From: Patellaria atrata CBS 101060
Taxonomy: Eukaryota
Assembly (NCBI GenBank): GCA_010093705.1
Contig: MU006095.1
Span: forward strand, 124,001 to 188,000
Direction of reading: 5' to 3'
DNA length: 64,000 bases
In this document: positions 8,291 through 45,190 of the stretch, piece by piece
How the letters are laid out: every line of letters begins with the position of its first letter
How positions within the stretch are numbered: position 1 is the stretch's first letter
Position numbers and translations under genes: made by a program
The notes under the pieces: generated by a model
What the model saw: the letters and a program-made list of their open reading frames with translations, nothing else
Databases searched by the model: none
Told to the model about the DNA's origin: nothing

Positions 8291-9105
8291 CTAGTGCTTC
8301 TCAGGCTTGAGACTTTTGCTCGAGCTGGGAAAATCTTTCGACCAATCATCCTCCTGCGCATCCTGTTCCGATAGTCCATTTGTAGCCCATATCCGACTGA
8401 CACTCAAGTCGAACGCGCCCGGTGTGCGATCAATTAGGCTGACGCCTATTGTTCGTACTCTTTGCCGCAGCAGTTCCATCTGTGGTTCTACAACTTCCCC
8501 GTGATTCGTACGTACGAAATCATTCCAGTTGATAAGGATAGTTTCCCATTCTCCGGGTTTTCTAGTATACAATCGATGTTGATGTAAGTCTGTGGGTACA
8601 ATTGACTCCGTCTGTAGGTTGACAAAGTATTTACGACCATCGGATTTTATTCTCATAGCGAGATATGTGTAAGGGTCAATATCCCATAAGGATCTACCAA
8701 ATACAGTGGATCCACGGTACAGTGTTCGCCATCCTGCATAGCCACTCCTCTGTAAATTCGGGCGGTTTTTGGGTAGTTCAATTGAGATGTTTCCGTGAAA
8801 TCGCAGATGAGGTGGCTCGGTTTCTGAACCTGATACATAATCGATTTGGGCGTGCGAGAAACCACCAATATCGGCGTCTGACATTGCCTTACATCTCGTT
8901 ATCGAATCGGGATCGGAGAAGGTAATAAGCTGGTAGGGCCTGGTCGGAATTGAGACCGTCTCGAACCGCAAAGCTATTGGCAATCAGAAAAGTGTGGAAT
9001 GAGAGGGAGAGCAGCGGTCTATGTACCTGTGCCAGATAGTCTCTTGAACTCTTCTAGACTCCGTTTCAAAAAGCCGGGAGCGAAGCATCTTGCTGTACAG
9101 TGCAT
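8291..9105 (-). CDS. CIA30: Complex I intermediate-associated protein CIA30 (NDUFAF1 family); intron 9026-8974
   Basis: MSDADIGGFS, RSGYAGWRT, KSDGRKYFVNLQT and DLHQHRLY motifs. Exon 1 (MHCTARCFAPGFLKRSLEEFKRLS) resembles a mitochondrial presequence. Confidence 0.92.
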
Positions 9106-9640: not shown

Positions 9641-10894
9641 ATGACCTTCACATCCGCATCCACATCAGCCTCAGATGCCCGACGGCTAGCTGAACAGCAG
9701 TCCTATCTACAGAATCGCTTACCACAGTCGCGAGAACTCGGAGATGCAACACCAGAATCAGGCCGCAATGCGGTAGCGACGAAGCAGTCGCCGTTCGCGA
9801 AGTCATGGGCTCATTTCATCGCGGGAGCGTACGCAATACCAGACGATTCAAACCATCCCTTCACATTATGCTGATCGTAACAGCGCCGGAGGAATGACGT
9901 CGTCTGTTCTAACAGCCCCCTTGGATGTCCTAAAGACGCGGCTTCAGTCAGATTTCTATCAGGCTCAACTCATAGCCTCGCGCAAAGCACGAGGAATCCC
10001 ACCCCCTTCCACTATGTCAATACCTCGAAGCGCCCTTCTTCACGTCCGAGAAACGTTCCAGATTCTAGCGTCCGTACCTCGAATGGAAGGTTGGCGCGCC
10101 CTATTCAAGGGTGTTGGTCCAACTCTCGTTGGCGTCGTTCCAGCCCGCGCCATCAACTTCTACACGTACGGCAACGGCAAAAGGCTTATCAGCACATACT
10201 TCAATAACGGGCATGAAGCTGCCTGGGTACATTTGTACGCAGCAGCTTGTGCTGGTATAGCCACAGGCACAGCGACAAACCCGATCTGGGTAGTAAAGAC
10301 TCGATTACAGCTAGACAAGTCGCACTCGCACAATCCAGCTGAAAGACAGTACAAGAATGCTTTCGATTGTACGATGCAGATTTTGAGGCAGGAAGGTGTC
10401 AAGGGGCTCTATAGAGGATTAAGCGCAAGCTACCTCGGGGTCACTGAAAGTACATTGCAGTGGGTGATGTATGAGCAGATGAAGGGCGCACTCGCACGAC
10501 GAGAGGAAAGAGTTGCACTTTCCGGACGAGCACCAACAACATGGGATGTCGCAATTTCGTGGACTGGGAAACTTTTCGCAGCGGGCAGCGCCAAATTCGT
10601 CGCTGCTCTACTTACATATCCGCATGAGGTGAGCTCATTCTCGGCGTGTTCGAAACTGAAACTTACAAATTCTAGGTTGTACGAACACGATTACGACTGG
10701 GTCCTGCCGAGAACGGTCGGCTCAAATATACCGGTCTGCTACAATGTTTCAAGCTCATCTGGAAAGAGGAGAGACTTATCGGCCTCTATGGAGGCCTAAC
10801 ACCGCATATGATGAGAGTCGTCCCAAGCGCAGCTATCATGTTCGGAACGTACGAGGTAGTCCTAAAGATGCTCGGTGCTTCCTCGAACATGTAG
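9641..10894 (+). CDS. RIM2: Mitochondrial carrier, RIM2-like pyrimidine nucleotide transporter; introns 9829-9883, 10629-10675
   Basis: Three carrier signatures PLDVLKTRLQ, PIWVVKTRLQ and PHEVVRTRLR, plus SWAHFIAG and VPARAINF. Confidence 0.9.
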
Positions 10895-11636: not shown

Positions 11637-14091
11637 TCAAAAGAACTTCCCCGCCTTTCCGTCCCCGGCAACCTGCTCACGCCCGACAAAACTCTGATCA
11701 TCATCCCGATCCTGATGTGCAAAACTAACCGTATGCACCGGACGATCGAAAACATTGAACCTGCGTCCCCTCGTTCGAGAAAGGACGTACAATACCGCAA
11801 CACGCGTACCGAAAGCAGCAAATGCCCATAGGAGACCGCCAATAGGAGCGGCTACGAAAGCGCCTGGAGGAATGTTAATAGTGGTTAGGGGGTTGAGCCA
11901 AGGGGCGGGGGGAAACAAGATAGGGGACTTACCAAAGGCGCTCCAATCATTCGCGTATAACCCGCCCTCGAGGATGATAAGATTTCCTGCTTTTCTCGCA
12001 TCGCCGTCGAAGTACACGAGCCCGAACAGAAAGACCGTGAAGATACCCCCGAGGCCACCGACGACGACCTCGAAGCCGCGCCACCAGTAGAAGCGGTTCC
12101 ATAGGCCGAGGACTAGCACTGGTATTAATGCAGCGCTGACTAAGTCGCTGATGAGGTAGATCTGGAGGATATCCGGACTCTTCAGCGCCACGACGACTAC
12201 AGGGACAATAATCACCACAACCGCTGCTCTGATCCACCATAGGCCTAGCTTATTTCTGAAAATGTCGTTACTACCAGTGCTCACCATCGCCGACTGAAAG
12301 CTATCGAAAGCGGCAGTGCTCAAGCTGACAACCATACAAAGCACAATCCCCACAACCCACGCCGGCATCTGTCCCAACAGGAGAAAGAAAGAGAGATAGC
12401 CCGTATACGGATCCGTCTCCGGATTCCACGCGCCAGACCAAGTCGCCAACAACCCCGTGGTACCGACAAATGTCAAGATAATCGCAACAACCACGCACGC
12501 AATCGTAGTACCGATACGGAGATCAGCGTCTGTGCGGGAGGCAAAGGTGCGGAGCCAGAAGCCGGAGATGAAGAAGGCGTTTGTGAAGATGGCGACGGGG
12601 AAGATGTAGATGAGTTGCCAGCCGAGAAGGGAGGAATCCAGGAGTCCGGAGGGATCTACAAGACTTTTGTCGATTTTGGTCTCGACGCCCACGGTTATGA
12701 TTCCTACCATGATGAGAAGGAGGACCATTGCGGCTTGAATGTTGTCGGTCAGGAAGGAGACTTTGAAACCGCCAAGTGCTATACAACATAATCAGTATAT
12801 GCAGAGTCTACAGTTCGGGAATCGAGTTCATGGAACAAATGATTGTCGTAGTGTTACTCACAGGTATATATGGTAGTTACTACACCTTGAACTATAATCG
12901 CTGGAAGTCCATCGAGTCCGGTGAGGGCATTAATGATCTGCTGCATGGCAGACAGTTCGGCAACCATGTAAAGGAAAAGCGTAATCAACCTATCGCTGTG
13001 AGTATTATATTTAAGGGTTACTGGCCGGAGGCCGCATATCTCACGTACGTCATGATACTGAGATACAAAGCAGTCACCGCACCATATCTCTGCCGGGTCC
13101 ATTCAGTCAACACGAAACCCTCAGGACATCTCTTCCGAATCTTAGGTCCCAAGAACCCGAAGATCAAGAGTGGAAGAGCGGAGGAGAGCGCATAGATTAT
13201 GAGACCCTGTACACCCGCGATGGTAGCGATCTCTGGATAAGAAAAGAGTATTCCTGAACCAAGAGCTAATAGTGATTGAACTGAGTTAGCAATAGCCTGG
13301 ATATATAGGGGAAGGGGGAAGAGCGGCAGCACATTCCCCACGCAAGCATTATCTTGATCGAGTATTTACGGTTCTTCTCAGCTTCGTCTCTCACATGCAG
13401 ATTCTCTAGTCAGGCACAGATACAATGTGCAGCCTGAGCGAGAAATGTTCTGGAAGTGAGTGACTCGGCGCCCGTAGTGAAGCCGCGCAGTGGCATCTCC
13501 TTATTGTCATCAAACAAGACTAATGGACTTGTCGAGCCAGATAAGGAGAGCCGAACCTGCGGAATTTCTTTCATATACGAACCTCGATAACTGCTTAAGA
13601 TGCTTTCAACACCTCTGAAATTCTGTGCAAACGACCAGCTCTCAACCATCCTCAGGGAACCGATAAACATCGCGTCAGATAAAAGAAAGCGTGCTGCCGT
13701 CTCTCGTAATCTATCGTCCTATTACACTCACCCGACGCTATAAAGTTTAGGGCAAGCGGAATACCTAGTTCGAAGTCAGTTCAGTCATCGACGGTTACAG
13801 TATCGCAAGAACATCTTCATAAGATGGCAGAAGTAGTCGTGAGAGGTGTATGTTTGCAGATAATATGTTTCTAACCCTTCTGTGTGCCATTGCTCGAAAG
13901 CCATTCAGTCTTCGATTGACGTCGAAGACGCCATGCTATGTATAAACCAATAGCCCTGCAGTTAATTAGCTATGATCGGAACCCAGTAAACATATTAATC
14001 GTATATGCGGCGCTACTGCGTCAACCTACAAGAAGGCTCCATATGTCAAATAGATGATAGCGTTCGACGCGGCGAATGATGGAACACCCAT
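11637..14091 (-). CDS. Sodium:solute symporter-family transporter, NCU01977-like (putative thiamine or thiamine-precursor transporter); exons 14091-14030, 13955-13876, 13764-13732, 13265-13049, 12990-12862, 12778-11933, 11863-11637
   Basis: Spliced frame reads MGVPSFAASNAIIYLTYGAFL-AIGLYIAWRL...-GIPLALNFIAS-ALGSGILFSYPEIA...CPEGFVLTEWTRQRYG. All six introns are GT-AG and phase-consistent, and there are many TM segments. Confidence 0.9.
13329..13488 (-). promoter_or_regulatory. TPP (thiamine pyrophosphate) riboswitch aptamer in intron 3 (13731-13266) of the transporter
   Basis: Minus strand: P2 ACGG/CCGT, GCG, extended P3, conserved CTGAGA (13381-13376), CTC-GAT-CAAG-ATAATG-CTTG-CGT-GGG (P4/P5) and P1 GCGCG/TGTGC. 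Confidence 0.92.
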
Positions 14092-15571
14092 GTTCAGTAG
14101 AACTATGTACCGCACAATACTGCAGGAAAGTCTTGTAAGGTGCAATAGTTTCGTAGGAGATGCGGTTATGAATTGAAGTTTAAGGAAGTTTTTGCAAAGA
14201 AAAAAAAACTGATGAAAAGCGGGATGACTTCTTGGTTATACCACTAGTTAATAATGGTATTTCCTCCGTTCTACAGAGTGAGGTGGGGGTGAAAAGTGGC
14301 AAGAAGCTTTCTTAACTTAACATCTACAGCGAGAATATTCGCCGGAAATTGTATTTGATGCACCGGCATTGGGGAAATACAATGCGCTTAAATTGTATGG
14401 GTATAGATACGTGTAAGTTAGTGCCTATACTCTATAGTACTACTAGTTCTACGCTTACACCATAAATAGTTGAATACTTGGGAGACTTTGTCTAGAAGTT
14501 ATATACATCTGGATACGATCCGCAGTAGGTCTAATTTCCGTCTTCGTAAGGTCATTTCTTTCCAAAGACGATTCTTCTCATTCAAAATCAATTTCTTTAT
14601 AGTATGTTCTTCGACGAGCAAAGAAGCACCGGTGCATTCAGGCCAATACGGATGGGGTTGTGATGTAACCTCTGTAGAGAAGAGATACAGTGGAAGAGAA
14701 GAGGAGAATGGAAAAGGAAGGGAAAAAAAAGGATTATAAAGTATTTCTGAACCGATGTACAGTACATCCTGCGCTTCTGACTTACCATATGGCCCCATTC
14801 ATCGACGACGACTCCGAGACCGGTTGAAGATAAGACTCGTAACAACATCGTAGCGACTACGGAAAAGCATTTGCCATGTGGACTTCTGGTTTGAACATAT
14901 TTCGAGTTAAATAGTACTGGTCCTACTGTACCTGCAGCAAGCATACAGTGAACAAGGGGTAGGATACCTATATCTTCCCTGCAATACAGCGTTCGATTTT
15001 AGCAAACGAATAAAACTGCAAAAGACTCAAAGAGAAATACGTATTCCGGGCCTACTTCTATAGTCTGAGATTAGATACCATATCATAATGACTGACTACA
15101 AGGATGACCTCGTTCAGGAGGGAAGTAGCATAACAAGATGACCAACATATCTTCCCTTTCTCATCCATAACTCACGTGCAGCTTAACAGATCATACATCT
15201 GATAATATCGTTCAACGTCCATATATAATGTCGTAGTTAGAAAATACGCATTTTCCTTAGGATCTATATATTGACGTCATAGATTCTGTACTCACATTGA
15301 TCAGCAGAATCTTAAAACTTTTATGGATAACGGAGATATGAAAAATTCAAACGTACATTCTTCGCTGGACAAGTCACCCTGATTCACTGTATCATCCTAG
15401 TTGAACCGGGTTCTGAAATATCTATACAGCACGGTGACATCAAGTTAGCATCCGACTACCGTACGCCATTACATATACAGCCACGATATAACACCCAGGA
15501 ACCGCGTACCTGAACGAAAGAAGCCTGGGACCACTAGTCACCAACTCCAAACCTCCACACCACCATCAAGC

Positions 15572-16984
15572 ATGTCCACCTCGACCGGTCCAAACAACTC
15601 GGGCCTGAAATCCTTCCTCGCCTCCCTCTCAACGGTCAAAGGCAACCTAAGCAACATAACCGCCCCTCCCTTCCTCTTAGCACCGCACTCCACGACCTCG
15701 CTCCCCCAATACCAAGCGAATCGGCCCTCCCTCTTCGTCGCTCCGGCCCTCGAGCCCCGCACCGATAAACGGGCCCTGCTGGTGCTCAAGCGCTTCCTAG
15801 CGTCGCTCAGGGGCCAACAGTACGCGGGCAGCGACGAATCAGACGGTGTGAAAAAGCCGCTCAACGCTTTTCTCGGGGAGCTATTCCTCGGTTCGTTCGA
15901 GGAGGACGGAGTCGGGGAAATCGAATTGGTGGTAGAACAAGTATCCCACCATCCGCCGGTCACGGCGTGCTATCTCTATAACGCGAGACACGGTGTCTCG
16001 TCGCAAGGGTTTGCGGCGCAGGAAGTGTCATTTTCGGGGAGCGTGAGCGTTAAGCAGAGGGGGTATACGATCGTGCGGCTTGAGAGGTTTGAGGAGGATT
16101 ATTTGGTTCCGTTGCCGGATGTTAAGGTTAAGGGAGTTTTGGGCGGTGTTATGTATCCTGAGATCACGGGGGCGTATGCGATTGTGGGGTCGAGTGGTTT
16201 CGTGAGTGAGATTCAGTTTGGGGAGAAGGGGTTTTTAGGTGGGGGAGAGAGAAATGGGTTTGAGGCGAGGGTGTTTGCGGCGGAGAAGAGGGAGGATGTG
16301 TTGTTTACGGTAGAAGGGCGGTGGGATGAGAGATTTACTGTACGGGATGGAAGGACGGGGGAAACTATGGAGGTGTATGATACACGTACCGCTCTAACTA
16401 CGCAGATTCGTGTTGCAGATATCGCTGAGCAAGATCCATGGGAGTCAAGAAGGGCGTGGGGATGTGTGATTGATGCCATGAAGCGAAGTGATATGCAGGC
16501 TACTGCCAACGAGAAGTCGATACTAGAGAATGGTCAAAGAGAAATGCGAAACCAGGAGCAAGCGGAGAACAGACAGTGGAAACCAGTCTTTTTCAAGAAG
16601 GTCAGTAAGGACCGGATCTATGAGAAACTTGCGGGTATGGCAAAGACGAATATTACAGTTGACCGTGAGGGTGGGATATGGAAGGTCGATCTGGAGGCAA
16701 TTCTGAACGCAAGAAGACCTTTCCATGATGGTATGACACCAAGAAATCAAAGAAAAAGTAGCAACAACGAACAATCAAAGCTTGAAAGGAGTAAAAATTC
16801 AGAAACAGATTGTCAGAGTGTGATGTCAACATCAGATTTTGAGGAGACTCAAGACGAAGCTAAGGGAGATAACCCGAACCACAAAGAACAAAGAGAAGAG
16901 CAAAGCATGGACAAGATCAACCATGAGCGAGAACGAATCCAGATCGAGGAGTTCCTTAGGAACAAATATAGCTCCGCACATTGA
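15572..16984 (+). CDS. Oxysterol-binding protein, Kes1/Osh4-like short ORP; intronless
   Basis: TAPPFLL, KKPLNAFLGE, signature EQVSHHPP, ESRRAW and EKSILENGQR. Confidence 0.93.
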   Translation: MSTSTGPNNSGLKSFLASLSTVKGNLSNITAPPFLLAPHSTTSLPQYQANRPSLFVAPALEPRTDKRALLVLKRFLASLRGQQYAGSDESDGVKKPLNAFLGELFLGSFEEDGVGEIELVVEQVSHHPPVTACYLYNARHGVSSQGFAAQEVSFSGSVSVKQRGYTIVRLERFEEDYLVPLPDVKVKGVLGGVMYPEITGAYAIVGSSGFVSEIQFGEKGFLGGGERNGFEARVFAAEKREDVLFTVEGRWDERFTVRDGRTGETMEVYDTRTALTTQIRVADIAEQDPWESRRAWGCVIDAMKRSDMQATANEKSILENGQREMRNQEQAENRQWKPVFFKKVSKDRIYEKLAGMAKTNITVDREGGIWKVDLEAILNARRPFHDGMTPRNQRKSSNNEQSKLERSKNSETDCQSVMSTSDFEETQDEAKGDNPNHKEQREEQSMDKINHERERIQIEEFLRNKYSSAH

Positions 16985-41644: not shown

Positions 41645-42615
41645 NNNNNNNNNNNNNNNNNNNNNNNNNNNNNNNNNNNNNNNNNNNNNNNNNNNNNNNN
41701 NNNNNNNNNNNNNNNNNNNNNNNNNNNNNNNNNNNNNNNNNNNNNNNNNNNNNNNNNNNNNNNNNNNNNNNNNNNNNNNNNNNNNNNNNNNNNNNNNNNN
41801 NNNNNNNNNNNNNNNNNNNNNNNNNNNNNNNNNNNNNNNNNNNNNNNNNNNNNNNNNNNNNNNNNNNNNNNNNNNNNNNNNNNNNNNNNNNNNNNNNNNN
41901 NNNNNNNNNNNNNNNNNNNNNNNNNNNNNNNNNNNNNNNNNNNNNNNNNNNNNNNNNNNNNNNNNNNNNNNNNNNNNNNNNNNNNNNNNNNNNNNNNNNN
42001 NNNNNNNNNNNNNNNNNNNNNNNNNNNNNNNNNNNNNNNNNNNNNNNNNNNNNNNNNNNNNNNNNNNNNNNNNNNNNNNNNNNNNNNNNNNNNNNNNNNN
42101 NNNNNNNNNNNNNNNNNNNNNNNNNNNNNNNNNNNNNNNNNNNNNNNNNNNNNNNNNNNNNNNNNNNNNNNNNNNNNNNNNNNNNNNNNNNNNNNNNNNN
42201 NNNNNNNNNNNNNNNNNNNNNNNNNNNNNNNNNNNNNNNNNNNNNNNNNNNNNNNNNNNNNNNNNNNNNNNNNNNNNNNNNNNNNNNNNNNNNNNNNNNN
42301 NNNNNNNNNNNNNNNNNNNNNNNNNNNNNNNNNNNNNNNNNNNNNNNNNNNNNNNNNNNNNNNNNNNNNNNNNNNNNNNNNNNNNNNNNNNNNNNNNNNN
42401 NNNNNNNNNNNNNNNNNNNNNNNNNNNNNNNNNNNNNNNNNNNNNNNNNNNNNNNNNNNNNNNNNNNNNNNNNNNNNNNNNNNNNNNNNNNNNNNNNNNN
42501 NNNNNNNNNNNNNNNNNNNNNNNNNNNNNNNNNNNNNNNNNNNNNNNNNNNNNNNNNNNNNNNNNNNNNNNNNNNNNNNNNNNNNNNNNNNNNNNNNNNN
42601 NNNNNNNNNNNNNNA
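41645..42615. other. Assembly gap (971 N)
   Basis: Run of N characters. Confidence 1.
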
Positions 42616-43100
42616 AAAAAAACCCCTCCTCCGGATATAAAGGACGTAAGCAGAGGGCAATAGGGGAGGAGGGTAGAGGGTAGTAGGAGTGGAGGGTAGG
42701 AGGGTAGTAAAAAGGGGGATATAAGAGGAGAGGATAGAGGAGTAAGGTAGTAAGATTTTCTACTCTCTTCTACTCTACTCTCCCTTACTCCTTACTCTAC
42801 TCTACTAGGAAGGGATAGAGTAGCAAAGGAAAGAGTAGTAAAGGGGGGAGTAGTGAGAAGGAGAGTAGTAGAGAGAAAGTAGTAAAGAGGAGGATAATAG
42901 GGGGAAGGGTAATAGGGAGGAGGATAGTAAGAGGGAGAGTATTATAAAATAGAGCAGTACGAGACAGAGTAAAAGGAGATAGAATAGGAGAGTAGGAGGG
43001 TAACAGCAGCGTAGGAGGGTAGGAGGGTAGTAAGAGATCCTTACTTAGTTTATAAGATTAGCCTTAACCCCCGGGATAGTATACCTAATATTATAAAGAA
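42616..43100. repeat. Purine-rich low-complexity, RIP-like repeat remnant containing a degenerate 15-bp array (~42818-42995)
   Basis: GAGTAGTAAAGRRRR-like units. TpA/TAG are abundant and CpA/TpG scarce; the tract abuts the gap. Confidence 0.65.
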
Positions 43101-45190
43101 GGCGAATATCCCTATATCGATACCAACCCTTTCCAATGTAATATACCGTTGTCCACCGAAGGGTGGGTTCAGTTTAAGGAATTGAGCGTCCGTTCCCGTT
43201 TAAATCGATGACACCATGCTTTTAGAGCCTATAGTCCTCGAATTCCCTTTTTCAATGACTTGTTTTGCCCTGATTTTTAGAGCTGGATATGGATACTTAA
43301 GAGACTGAACCTACTGAACCGCTTCGGAATCATATGAAATTGAACATGTAGATGATATACTGCGTCATGTAAATACGTAGGACTGTGTGATGTAACGGCG
43401 GTTTTAAGAAAATGTAAGATTTATCAAGATAGTTAGGATGTACAAACCAACTCCCCAACGCATCAAAACAAACTCTTAGGGGTAATCAAAATTTTACACC
43501 TCAGCGAGGTAGATCATCCAGGCCCGCGAACTTATACTACTGGGGGAATTATACGGTTGACCAGACCCCCGTCAACGGAGCACCTATGCACTATACATTA
43601 GCGACATAAACCCAACTTCCCACCATCACGAAGACGGCCGACGTTAACGGGGGATTCGGTAAATATAAGTCTCTTCCCTCCCTCCTCCTTCAACCATCTC
43701 AAGGAATTCCTCCGACGGGACTCACTCAGCAGAAGCGGACGAACGGGGATCAACGCCGCGCTCAGGCTCAAATTGCTCGGAAGATGCTGAGGAGGCTGCG
43801 AATCGCAGCTACCAACATTGCAAAGACTTGCCTCGGCCGTAGGGATTCATCTGAACTAAAGAGGCGGAGGCGGTGGAGGGGTTGTTGGATATAGGGTGGA
43901 CGTGTAAAGGGGTTACCTGCATGTGGGAGAAGAGATTTTTGATTACCTTGGGAATGCGGGTATAGATTCTGAAAAGGGATATCACGCGCTTGTATCCGAT
44001 GTTGGGATTTTATATCGAGGTGGAAACTGTACGATCGACTTCGTGTACGGAGCGGGGGAAGTGAACGAGGATTGCGGAGGTAAGAACACATCTCGTACAA
44101 GCCAGGAAGGGATGAAGAAAGAGGATCTCCGAATCTGACATTAGGGGGATGTTTCTACCGCTACCTCAATTGTTATGGATTTATGTGTTGTTTTTGACGT
44201 CTGTGTAAGCGGTCACAAGATCCCAGACTCGGGTAGTAATAAGATAGAGTCCTGATTCATAGATTTACGGCGTTTGAGAGATGATCTAGGAGTTGAGGGT
44301 AGATATAGACAACCCCATTAAGCACCACTATTATCACACCAGCGTCATCATGATTCTTATCTGATGGTGCACAACCGCGAGCCTCTTGTACGCGCTCCTG
44401 ATATCTGTTATCGAAGTGTTCATTCGTAGAACGATGAAAAGAGGAGAAACCGCGAGGAGGAACGGATATAAAAGGAACAGAAGCAAGCTCGCGAACGTAG
44501 GAATAACAACGGACCGCTCTTCTAGAGCATCAATGCCGTCTCCTCGACGGCGAAATCGGATTCCCGTACGATGGGTCTACATCAATACGCAATGATCTAT
44601 ATACTGTACTACAGGGGGAGGATTATGCTTCGTACGTTGCGTGTATTTATGAATGGATTTCCGACTCCACCGTATGCGATGAGCAACTCGTACAAAATAT
44701 CATGGTCAAAGTGACGTATTCTTTTGAAACCGATTGAACAAAGCATGACGTTTGACGCGACAAGTACGAGCGGAGTGAAGAACCAATGAAAGAGACTAAG
44801 GGGGTAGTTGAATAGCCAGCTAGACCGAGAAATTTTTCAGTGGAGTTTCTCATAACAGTACACAGGGGAGAACAGGGTAGTAGTGAAAAGACTTCAATGC
44901 ACGCACAAGGACTATTATATCACTCACCGATCTCTTCTTACCTAATAATAGCCGTTAAGAATGGGTTGGTAACGAATTGATTCCAGCAAGAGACACTCAA
45001 AATCCACACCGCCTGGAAGAGACGAGAATTAGAATATTCATGCCTATCATCTACCCTAACCCCTCCGCCGAAGCGCCCTCCAACTGAATATCATACAAAG
45101 TAAAGGATAAAAAGTAAACTGCATCGAAACCAACCCCTATCACTATTTTATTCCCACACATGCTTTTCTATCCCTACCATCATGGTTCCA

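Follow-up and report, generated by a model that had tools for sequence, protein, structure and literature searches.

The switch closest to the one described here was reported in the Neurospora crassa gene NCU01977, where a TPP riboswitch works through a long-range pairing between two intron elements, alpha and alpha-prime (Li and Breaker 2013, PMC3597705). The class is Type II in PMC5882874 and TPPsw-UREA in PMC11683625, which counts 81 instances. According to the available text of PMC3597705, it is the pairing and not the exact alpha sequence that matters; sequencing showed use of the internal donor S3 in the presence of thiamine, and mutating S3 singly left regulation unchanged. A second relevant gene is DUR31 of Candida parapsilosis (Donovan et al. 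2018, PMC5997356), which encodes an SSF protein (PF00474) of 525 aa and has a riboswitch intron near its 5' end. Unlike the Neurospora intron, this one is 351 nt long, its long-range pairing is thought to be unused and thiamine mainly raises intron retention, as far as the accessible part of that paper describes. Deletions of dur31 in Candida confer resistance to pyrithiamine (PMC5997356), and Blumeria DUR31 complements yeast (PMC12329505), again as given in the available sections. The TPP riboswitches of fungal THI4/NMT1 (Type I) and NUC-transporter genes share the aptamer class but lie upstream of the coding region, and their published mechanism is masking of a proximal donor by P4-P5, together with uORFs, rather than exchange of P1 over 370 nt.

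The riboswitch class and its interpretation are thus largely published already, as is the thiamine-importer role of the orthologues, and the locus that we describe from Patellaria atrata is one more dothideomycete member of a described, validated class. It lies on the minus strand of the window, the whole stretch of 64,000 nt that was analysed (Table 1). In the predicted model, the spliced exons form an open 1593-nt reading frame free of internal stops, every intron is GT-AG, and the 530-aa protein has 12 hydrophobic segments. Intron lengths are 74, 111, 466, 59, 83 and 69 nt. The initial annotation had placed a TPP riboswitch in a 466-nt intron with a GCTAAC branch point, and both were found where it put them; it had given 58–111 nt for the other introns, of which the upper value was right and the lower proved to be 59 nt.

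Table 1. Positions of the gene, its riboswitch intron and the elements within it, numbered along the window; a slash separates paired strands in the positions and marks the splice point in the donor sequences.
Feature	Position	Strand	Remarks
DUR31/NCU01977-type SSF transporter gene	11637..14091	(-)	predicted model; 7 exons, 530 aa
Exons 1-7	14091-14030, 13955-13876, 13764-13732, 13265-13049, 12989-12862, 12778-11933, 11863-11637	(-)	
Micro-exon 3, 33 nt	13732..13764	(-)	ends at productive donor S1, G/GTGAGT, GT at 13731
Intron 3, 466 nt, riboswitch carrier	13266..13731	(-)	GT-AG, phase 1, after codon 58
Alpha element, P1 competitor	13690..13705	(-)	begins at intron nt 27
Possible second anti-aptamer stretch (beta)	13657..13672	(-)	pairs with 13374-13359, lengthening the alpha helix, in the minimum-energy fold; weak
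In-frame TGA, codon 85	13652..13654	(-)	met on retention of intron sequence beyond it
Invariant decoy donor AG/GTTCGT(A)	13576..13584	(-)	GT at 13582; equivalent of N. crassa S3
Further candidate donor CAG/GTTCGG	13551..13559	(-)	GT at 13556; consensus score only
TPP aptamer	13323..13486	(-)	RF00059, relatives' profile, motifs
P1	13486-13477/13332-13323	(-)	
P2	13475-13472/13371-13368	(-)	
P3, 89 nt	13469-13381	(-)	
J3/2 UGAGAA	13380-13375	(-)	
P4	13362-13359/13340-13337	(-)	
P5	13356-13353/13346-13343	(-)	L5 13352-13347
Alpha-prime, 3' strand of P1 and following bases	13319..13333	(-)	ends 53 nt before the 3' splice site
Branch point GCTAAC	13285..13290	(-)	3' splice site TAG ends at 13266

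Five full-length homologues share 369–400 identities with the predicted protein over 524–529 aligned residues, and 41–50 of its first 58 residues. PF00474 scored above its cut-off for P0001 (31.4 bits against 22.8), the public protein that carries the gene's exons 4–7, and for P0009, while single exons searched alone gave no match at 1e-3. With PF00474 seen through P0001, a length near 525 aa and a multi-pass membrane protein, the gene has the features of the DUR31 clade. The micro-exon peptide before the intron, the acceptor peptide and the intron phase are identical, by eye, to those of NCU01977 as given in the PMC3597705 supplement, and the donor GTGAGT and the intron position are also shared. 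In C. parapsilosis DUR31 the premature stop comes after 58 codons (PMC5997356, available text), and in P. atrata intron 3 follows codon 58. Because of the shared peptides, donor hexamer, phase and codon-58 position, the gene is on its sequence an orthologue of NCU01977/DUR31, beyond mere similarity.

Exon peptides, intron positions (by eye) and the contrast with DUR3 likewise group the gene with NCU01977/Dur31 rather than with Dur3. The urea-proton symporters of the DUR3 type (PDB 9vim, 9j7c, 9x5u) belong to the same SSF family but are only distantly related, P0009 matching solved DUR3 at E 4e-9 over its whole length. The DUR31-type gene is single copy in the assembly. Its one distant paralogue is DUR3-like and sits at a separate locus (L084; E 6e-48 to solved DUR3 over 127 residues), where the 3.4 kb fetched contained no aptamer-like motif. 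The best protein match was P0001, labelled Patellaria atrata, and most of the named matches are, judging by genus, presumably from dothideomycetes and other filamentous ascomycetes.

A complete TPP aptamer on the minus strand had been proposed from the letters of the window, and the searches bear it out. RF00059 matched 13485-13317 (-) across all 105 model positions (39.3 bits, E 5.6e-6; cmscan of the 1-kb segment 13200-14200), and a profile built from 26 relatives with the P. atrata locus excluded found the aptamer at E 1.2e-30, the next match in 64 kb having E 0.71. The RF00059 search that the initial annotation had suggested as a check therefore came out significant, although below the gathering score of 54.3 bits, and for that reason a default Rfam scan of the 64-kb window at the gathering score returned nothing. 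None of eight relatives tested reached this score and neither did the two further aptamers of the genome; according to the part of PMC11683625 available, RF00059 fails on fungal aptamers whose P3 is longer than ~60 nt.

The putative TPP-binding structure has the three-way junction of P1–P5, with UGAGA in J3/2, GCG in J4/5 and UAAU in L5 (motif names from the available text of PMC5882874); J3/2 reads UGAGAA in P. atrata and UGAGAU in N. crassa. P1 is a 5-pair plus 3-pair helix, an arrangement equal to that targeted by the Neurospora mutagenesis primers listed in PMC3597705, and it reaches 13323, so that the boundary first drawn at 13329 was 6 nt short. All four P3 stems noted beforehand (13460-56/13394-90, 13444-40/13406-02, 13437-34/13413-10 and 13430-26/13418-14) occur in the minimum-energy fold. 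The aptamer alone folded no better than shuffles (z -0.46); it is conservation rather than stability that speaks for it.

We draw on relatives of the locus. A metagenome scan returned 76 loci, of which 51 had both flanking exon peptides; the 25 dropped mostly had a contig ending before the intron, and six of them still showed an aptamer before the acceptor. All 51 retained loci carried the aptamer in the orthologous intron, which ranged from 420 to 652 nt. Together with P. atrata they formed 27 clusters, whose counts are not independent events since the clusters share ancestry; in their best local match, the 26 relatives had a median of 14% identical letters. Across the 27 sequences, 99.5–100% of cells were paired in P2, the P3 base and P4/P5, but most of the aptamer pairs never vary and so give no covariation signal. 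Changes on both sides of a pair were seen in 15 cells, mainly in proximal P3, a count matched in 2/500 shuffles. An in-frame stop ahead of the aptamer and a downstream donor were present in every one of the 27 clusters.

The initial annotation was right about the aptamer but missed the expression platform, namely the alpha element and the decoy donor. Alpha lies within ~60 nt of S1 and is complementary to the 3' strand of P1, with 10 contiguous pairs, a bulged A and 5 further pairs. In the fold of exon 3 plus the intron, pairs between 13705-13690 and 13319-13333 had probabilities of 0.85–1.0. The duplex has an energy of -26.0 kcal/mol, against -15.0 kcal/mol for P1 itself, and was reached by 0/500 dinucleotide shuffles of the upstream intron (mean -15.4). 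The distances from S1 to alpha and from alpha-prime to the 3' splice site are each <60 nt, in agreement with NCU01977 as described in the accessible text of PMC3597705. Unlike NCU01977, alpha in P. atrata is interrupted by one inserted A and matches 8/9 letters of the consensus RGCGGYRRY, so that neither the exact consensus nor a run of at least 11 continuous pairs is present.

The exact alpha consensus occurred in 19/27 clusters, and in 21/27 the best alpha duplex was matched by no more than 2/30 shuffles; in the other six alpha was weak or missing, and one locus (L071) lacked alpha-prime. When alpha was anchored on CGG/CCG, as was possible in 25/27 clusters, cells were paired at 93% in register and at 26–66% when slid, with 3 of the 10 columns fixed by the anchor. 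AU/GC exchanges were seen in the pairing at positions -3 and -4. Directly observed are the elements in the sequence, how far they complement one another, how well they are conserved and the orthology of the gene.

In P. atrata, as in NCU01977, the aptamer lies close to the 3' splice site of a long coding-region intron of a DUR31 orthologue, with an S3-type donor AG/GTTCGT upstream of it, and the retained sequence contains stops. The intron is shorter, at 466 nt against roughly 680 nt in N. crassa (from printed coordinates) and published Type II ranges of 550–650 nt (PMC3597705) and 650–900 nt (PMC5882874) in the parts of those papers available. The donors at 13582 and 13556 are candidates whose use would lead to the premature stop at 13654-13652; there is no S4-like donor just before P1, unlike in NCU01977. 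On these features, which depart from the class only in the Rfam cut-off and the exact alpha consensus, the locus would work like NCU01977.

Thus, the intron very probably contains a Type II (NCU01977-type) TPP riboswitch that acts as an OFF switch on the splicing of a thiamine importer. For TPP binding, the splicing shift and the substrate we infer from experiments in N. crassa, Candida and Blumeria. When TPP is low, alpha-prime, the 3' strand of P1, would pair with alpha ~370 nt upstream and 27 nt behind S1. This pairing would bring S1 near the branch point and the 3' splice site and loop out the internal donors, so that the entire intron would be removed and the 530-aa DUR31 transporter made. 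When TPP is high, the aptamer would bind the cofactor and P1 would close on alpha-prime; splicing would then move to the decoy at 13582 (or to 13556), or the intron would be retained, and with translation ending at codon 85 the importer would not be made. By analogy with the characterised genes, thiamine-dependent repression of splicing is the most likely behaviour of the P. atrata gene.

The decoy donor is possibly the one new detail of this otherwise known switch. The sequence AGGTTCGT was present in 52/52 introns (27 clusters), 115–219 nt behind S1; the 175,210 nt of flanking DNA contained it 4 times. No other 7-mer in the 5' part of the intron is shared so widely: 27/27 clusters have it, as against 17/27 for alpha. 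It is identical throughout, whereas the S1 donor takes five forms. C. parapsilosis DUR31 also has a non-consensus second donor, although its letters differ (GTTGGA; PMC5997356, available text). The literature searched did not describe the P3 loops or the constancy of the decoy; either Moldovan et al. 2018 or Fig. S6 of PMC3597705, an alignment, may already show them. The invariant decoy offers a precise handle on the unexplained residual regulation of NCU01977-type riboswitches.

Several other roles for this part of the intron were considered, of which a cassette exon and a shortened isoform were rejected. A poison cassette exon before the decoy was compatible with 0/27 clusters when a strict branch point and acceptor were required, and with 2/27, at a length of 3n, under relaxed settings; the same search recovered 25/27 at the true 3' end. 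A zero-length (recursive) exon at NAG/GTTCGT is unlikely, since the GAG found in 9/27 speaks against an acceptor; a TRAY motif lay within 13 nt of NAG/GTTCGT in 10/27 (control mean 1.9). A conserved, N-terminally shortened isoform starting from an intronic AUG also found little footing, with an in-frame AUG before the invariant donor in 2/27 clusters and before any strong donor in 5/27.

We investigated whether the aptamer might act on the decoy as well as on alpha-prime. In such a two-lock switch, which would extend the mechanism above and which we regard as possible but improbable, the TPP-free aptamer also masks the decoy, using either the P3 base (3' strand) or P2 (5' strand), and TPP frees it. 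The constancy of the decoy beside a changeable S1 would fit this. Among the 16 GTNNGT hexamers the native one was the best at pairing with the 3' strand of the P3 base in 24/27 clusters, but that partner was one of three segments and was chosen after looking, and against any segment the native hexamer had a median rank of 6/16. In the free ensemble of P. atrata, P2 is the partner of the decoy (0.88), and fixing the aptamer raised the opening of the decoy from 0.26 to 0.47; over the 27 clusters, however, the ensemble partner was inconsistent and the change in opening lacked significance (p 0.12), with the decoy more open in 14 and less open in 9.

The available text of PMC3597705 bears on this idea in both directions: it states that a second, undiscovered route exists, and its shortened P3 retains the P3 base, whereas its single S3 mutation had no effect on Neurospora regulation. 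Several relatives alter the partner strand while the donor stays unaltered, and the P3 base may be conserved for another reason, its contact with L5 (PMC8786325, in the part available). If the aptamer did mask the decoy, the unusual U+3 and C+4 of AG/GUUCGU would be the means, and this would be the 'undiscovered second route' of Li and Breaker; in a fungus seemingly without NMT1/THI5, two locks would control the intake of thiamine's pyrimidine half.

Returning to the OFF switch on splicing, we compared the public gene model with ours. P0001 agrees with the gene letter for letter but is spliced at the decoy donor 13582, starts at an ATG inside intron 3 (13670) and has 501 aa, which confirms the earlier expectation that annotation based on open reading frames would miss the riboswitch intron. 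Only 6–9 positions of its first 29 residues agree with the homologues, and it lacks the conserved first 58 residues, so the public model calls for correction. P0001 is a hint that the decoy is used, short of proof. In 15/27 clusters, six of which share one context, position -7 or -10 holds a stop codon that is in frame with the downstream exon, compared with 2 and 4 clusters for the other frames. The P. atrata gene is an exception to this pattern, and hence has a long false frame.

Import of thiamine by the 530-aa protein is a prediction that carries over from orthologues, for three of which uptake of thiamine or pyrithiamine has been demonstrated in the accessible reports. It is unlikely that the protein serves chiefly to transport urea or polyamines, or that it imports only the pyrimidine precursor (HMP) and not thiamine. 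Database labels do read 'urea transporter', and polyamine uptake is reported for C. albicans Dur31, which was first described as a spermidine transporter in the sources available in part; but a separate DUR3-like paralogue is present, and the uptake data for the orthologues point to thiamine. Import of HMP would be useful if NMT1 is missing, as the genome suggests. It contains THI4, a THI20-like kinase with a TenA domain and a second TenA gene, and no match to NMT1/THI5 was found with PF09084, PF13379 or a sequence motif. Because PF09084 was run without a fungal positive control and the assembly may be incomplete, the apparent loss is a lead only; it hints that P. atrata may have to import thiamine or the pyrimidine half of it, and as a lead it predicts dependence on uptake of thiamine or HMP.

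Two more aptamers were found in the genome among 49 scored of 1193 candidates, one before THI4 (L077) and one before an NCS1-family permease (L078). When the whole genome was searched by pattern for another intron of the NCU01977 type, with a spacing that was too short, one chance match came up, and the reversed control gave more.

Also unlikely is local control of the Type III or Candida-like kind, in which TPP affects whether the intron is retained or how accessible the branch point and 3' splice site are, with alpha secondary. The intron is only 466 nt, alpha-prime is 28 nt ahead of the branch point, and thiamine chiefly raises the unspliced form in C. parapsilosis and O. polymorpha (PMC5997356 for Candida, in the text available). 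Against this stand the strong alpha duplex at its canonical distance and the conservation of alpha in relatives with introns of 420–652 nt.

In an energy model without tertiary contacts or ligand, the aptamer-constrained fold of P. atrata lay 17.5 kcal/mol above the alpha-paired one, a gap among the larger ones in the 27-cluster range of 0–18 kcal/mol. The gap is partly due to a species-specific extension of the alpha helix by the possible beta stretch, for which 20/500 shuffles were equally good when the query had been picked after the fold was seen. As a family feature beta was rejected: no more than 1/30 shuffles were as good in 2/27 clusters only, at differing places. In this model TPP binding may not make up for the gap unless it takes place during transcription, and since alpha-prime is transcribed last and the model lacks contacts and ligand, co-transcriptional binding could decide the outcome. 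That the aptamer binds TPP while the beta-extended helix leaves the P. atrata switch weak or stuck ON is very unlikely, for although the gap, the minimum-energy fold in which beta pairs across P2 and P4, and the predicted diatom aptamers that did not confer regulation (source available in part) speak for it, the ligand-binding motifs, decoy donor and stop are all retained and P0001 uses the decoy.

The P3 arm, regarded as 'variable' in this riboswitch family, carries two conserved loops. The CGA/GAA loop at the P3 base is shared by P. atrata and N. crassa, whereas a distal CAA/A loop that is missing in P. atrata is present in N. crassa and in 20/27 clusters.

Two internal loops recur in the P3 stem of the transporter-gene TPP aptamers. 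In 20 of the 27 clusters of riboswitch introns, P3 carried a 3x1 internal loop about 23 nt from its base (for example L007:3267-3425 and L014:3313-3482), mostly CAA facing A and closed by C-G pairs. Shuffled sequences gave a mean of 0.08 such clusters and a maximum of 1 (200 shuffles), the pattern having been derived from the same sequences. The flanking helices show AU/CG exchanges among the relatives. We take this loop to be similar to a C-loop. It is present in N. crassa P3, whereas the window P3 lacks it. The second loop, NGA/GAN (3x3), lies at the P3 base in 25/27 clusters, including the window (13467-13465 with 13385-13383), and probably forms tandem sheared G-A pairs. The shortened P3 of Li and Breaker (PMC3597705) lacks the 3x1 loop, with expression falling by about half, and retains the NGA/GAN loop.

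The public protein model of the window gene, P0001, starts at an intronic ATG (13670), takes in the intron sequence 13670-13583, is spliced at the decoy donor and is missing the conserved first 58 residues. Because the micro-exon peptide was found in only 30 of 120 homologues among the matches listed, truncated models look common in the DUR31/NCU01977 family. Further downstream, intron 6 is in frame and lacks a stop codon; a plain ORF call therefore continues straight across it. Among the relatives, stop codons (TGA, TAA, TAG) that share the downstream exon's reading frame were enriched 4-10 nt upstream of the decoy donor, falling within the last three codons in 19 of 27 cases, compared with 2 and 4 in the other frames; the window has no such stop.

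Several relatives diverge in the switch or the protein. In L071, L030 and L005, the long-range alpha/alpha-prime pairing that competes with P1 is lost or weak, with aptamer and decoy donor kept, making these loci natural test cases for the proposed second regulatory route. L048, L050 and L051 still have the aptamer and carry substitutions at positions that are invariant elsewhere: H replaces L within the micro-exon peptide, and R replaces P downstream of the acceptor. They are possibly decaying copies.

Positions of intron 6, neighbouring genes and other TPP aptamers
Feature	Position	Strand	Remark
Intron 6	11864-11932		69 nt
CIA30 complex I assembly factor	8291-8983	-	
Mitochondrial carrier	9777-10799	+	
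Oxysterol-binding protein	15449-16984	+	
L077, TPP aptamer	G000:C27:49785-49881	+	before THI4
L078, TPP aptamer	G000:C4:1049337-1049416	-	before NCS1/purine-cytosine permease

Since the same genome holds the window aptamer and L078, whose L5 reads UUCAU in place of the usual UAAU, UREA-type and NUC-type switches co-occur. THI4 and THI20-like salvage genes were found in the assembly. No NMT1/THI5 gene was found across it using PF09084 (without a fungal positive control), PF13379 and a sequence motif, nor was a riboswitch at such a gene among the 49 of 1193 aptamer candidates scored. It is possible that the fungus depends on imported HMP or thiamine. None of the transporter gene's tabulated neighbours points to a thiamine gene cluster. 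Elsewhere in the window, 42001-44000 is AT-rich (GC 0.32 versus about 0.47 elsewhere), which, as a guess, may be RIP-mutated repeat DNA.
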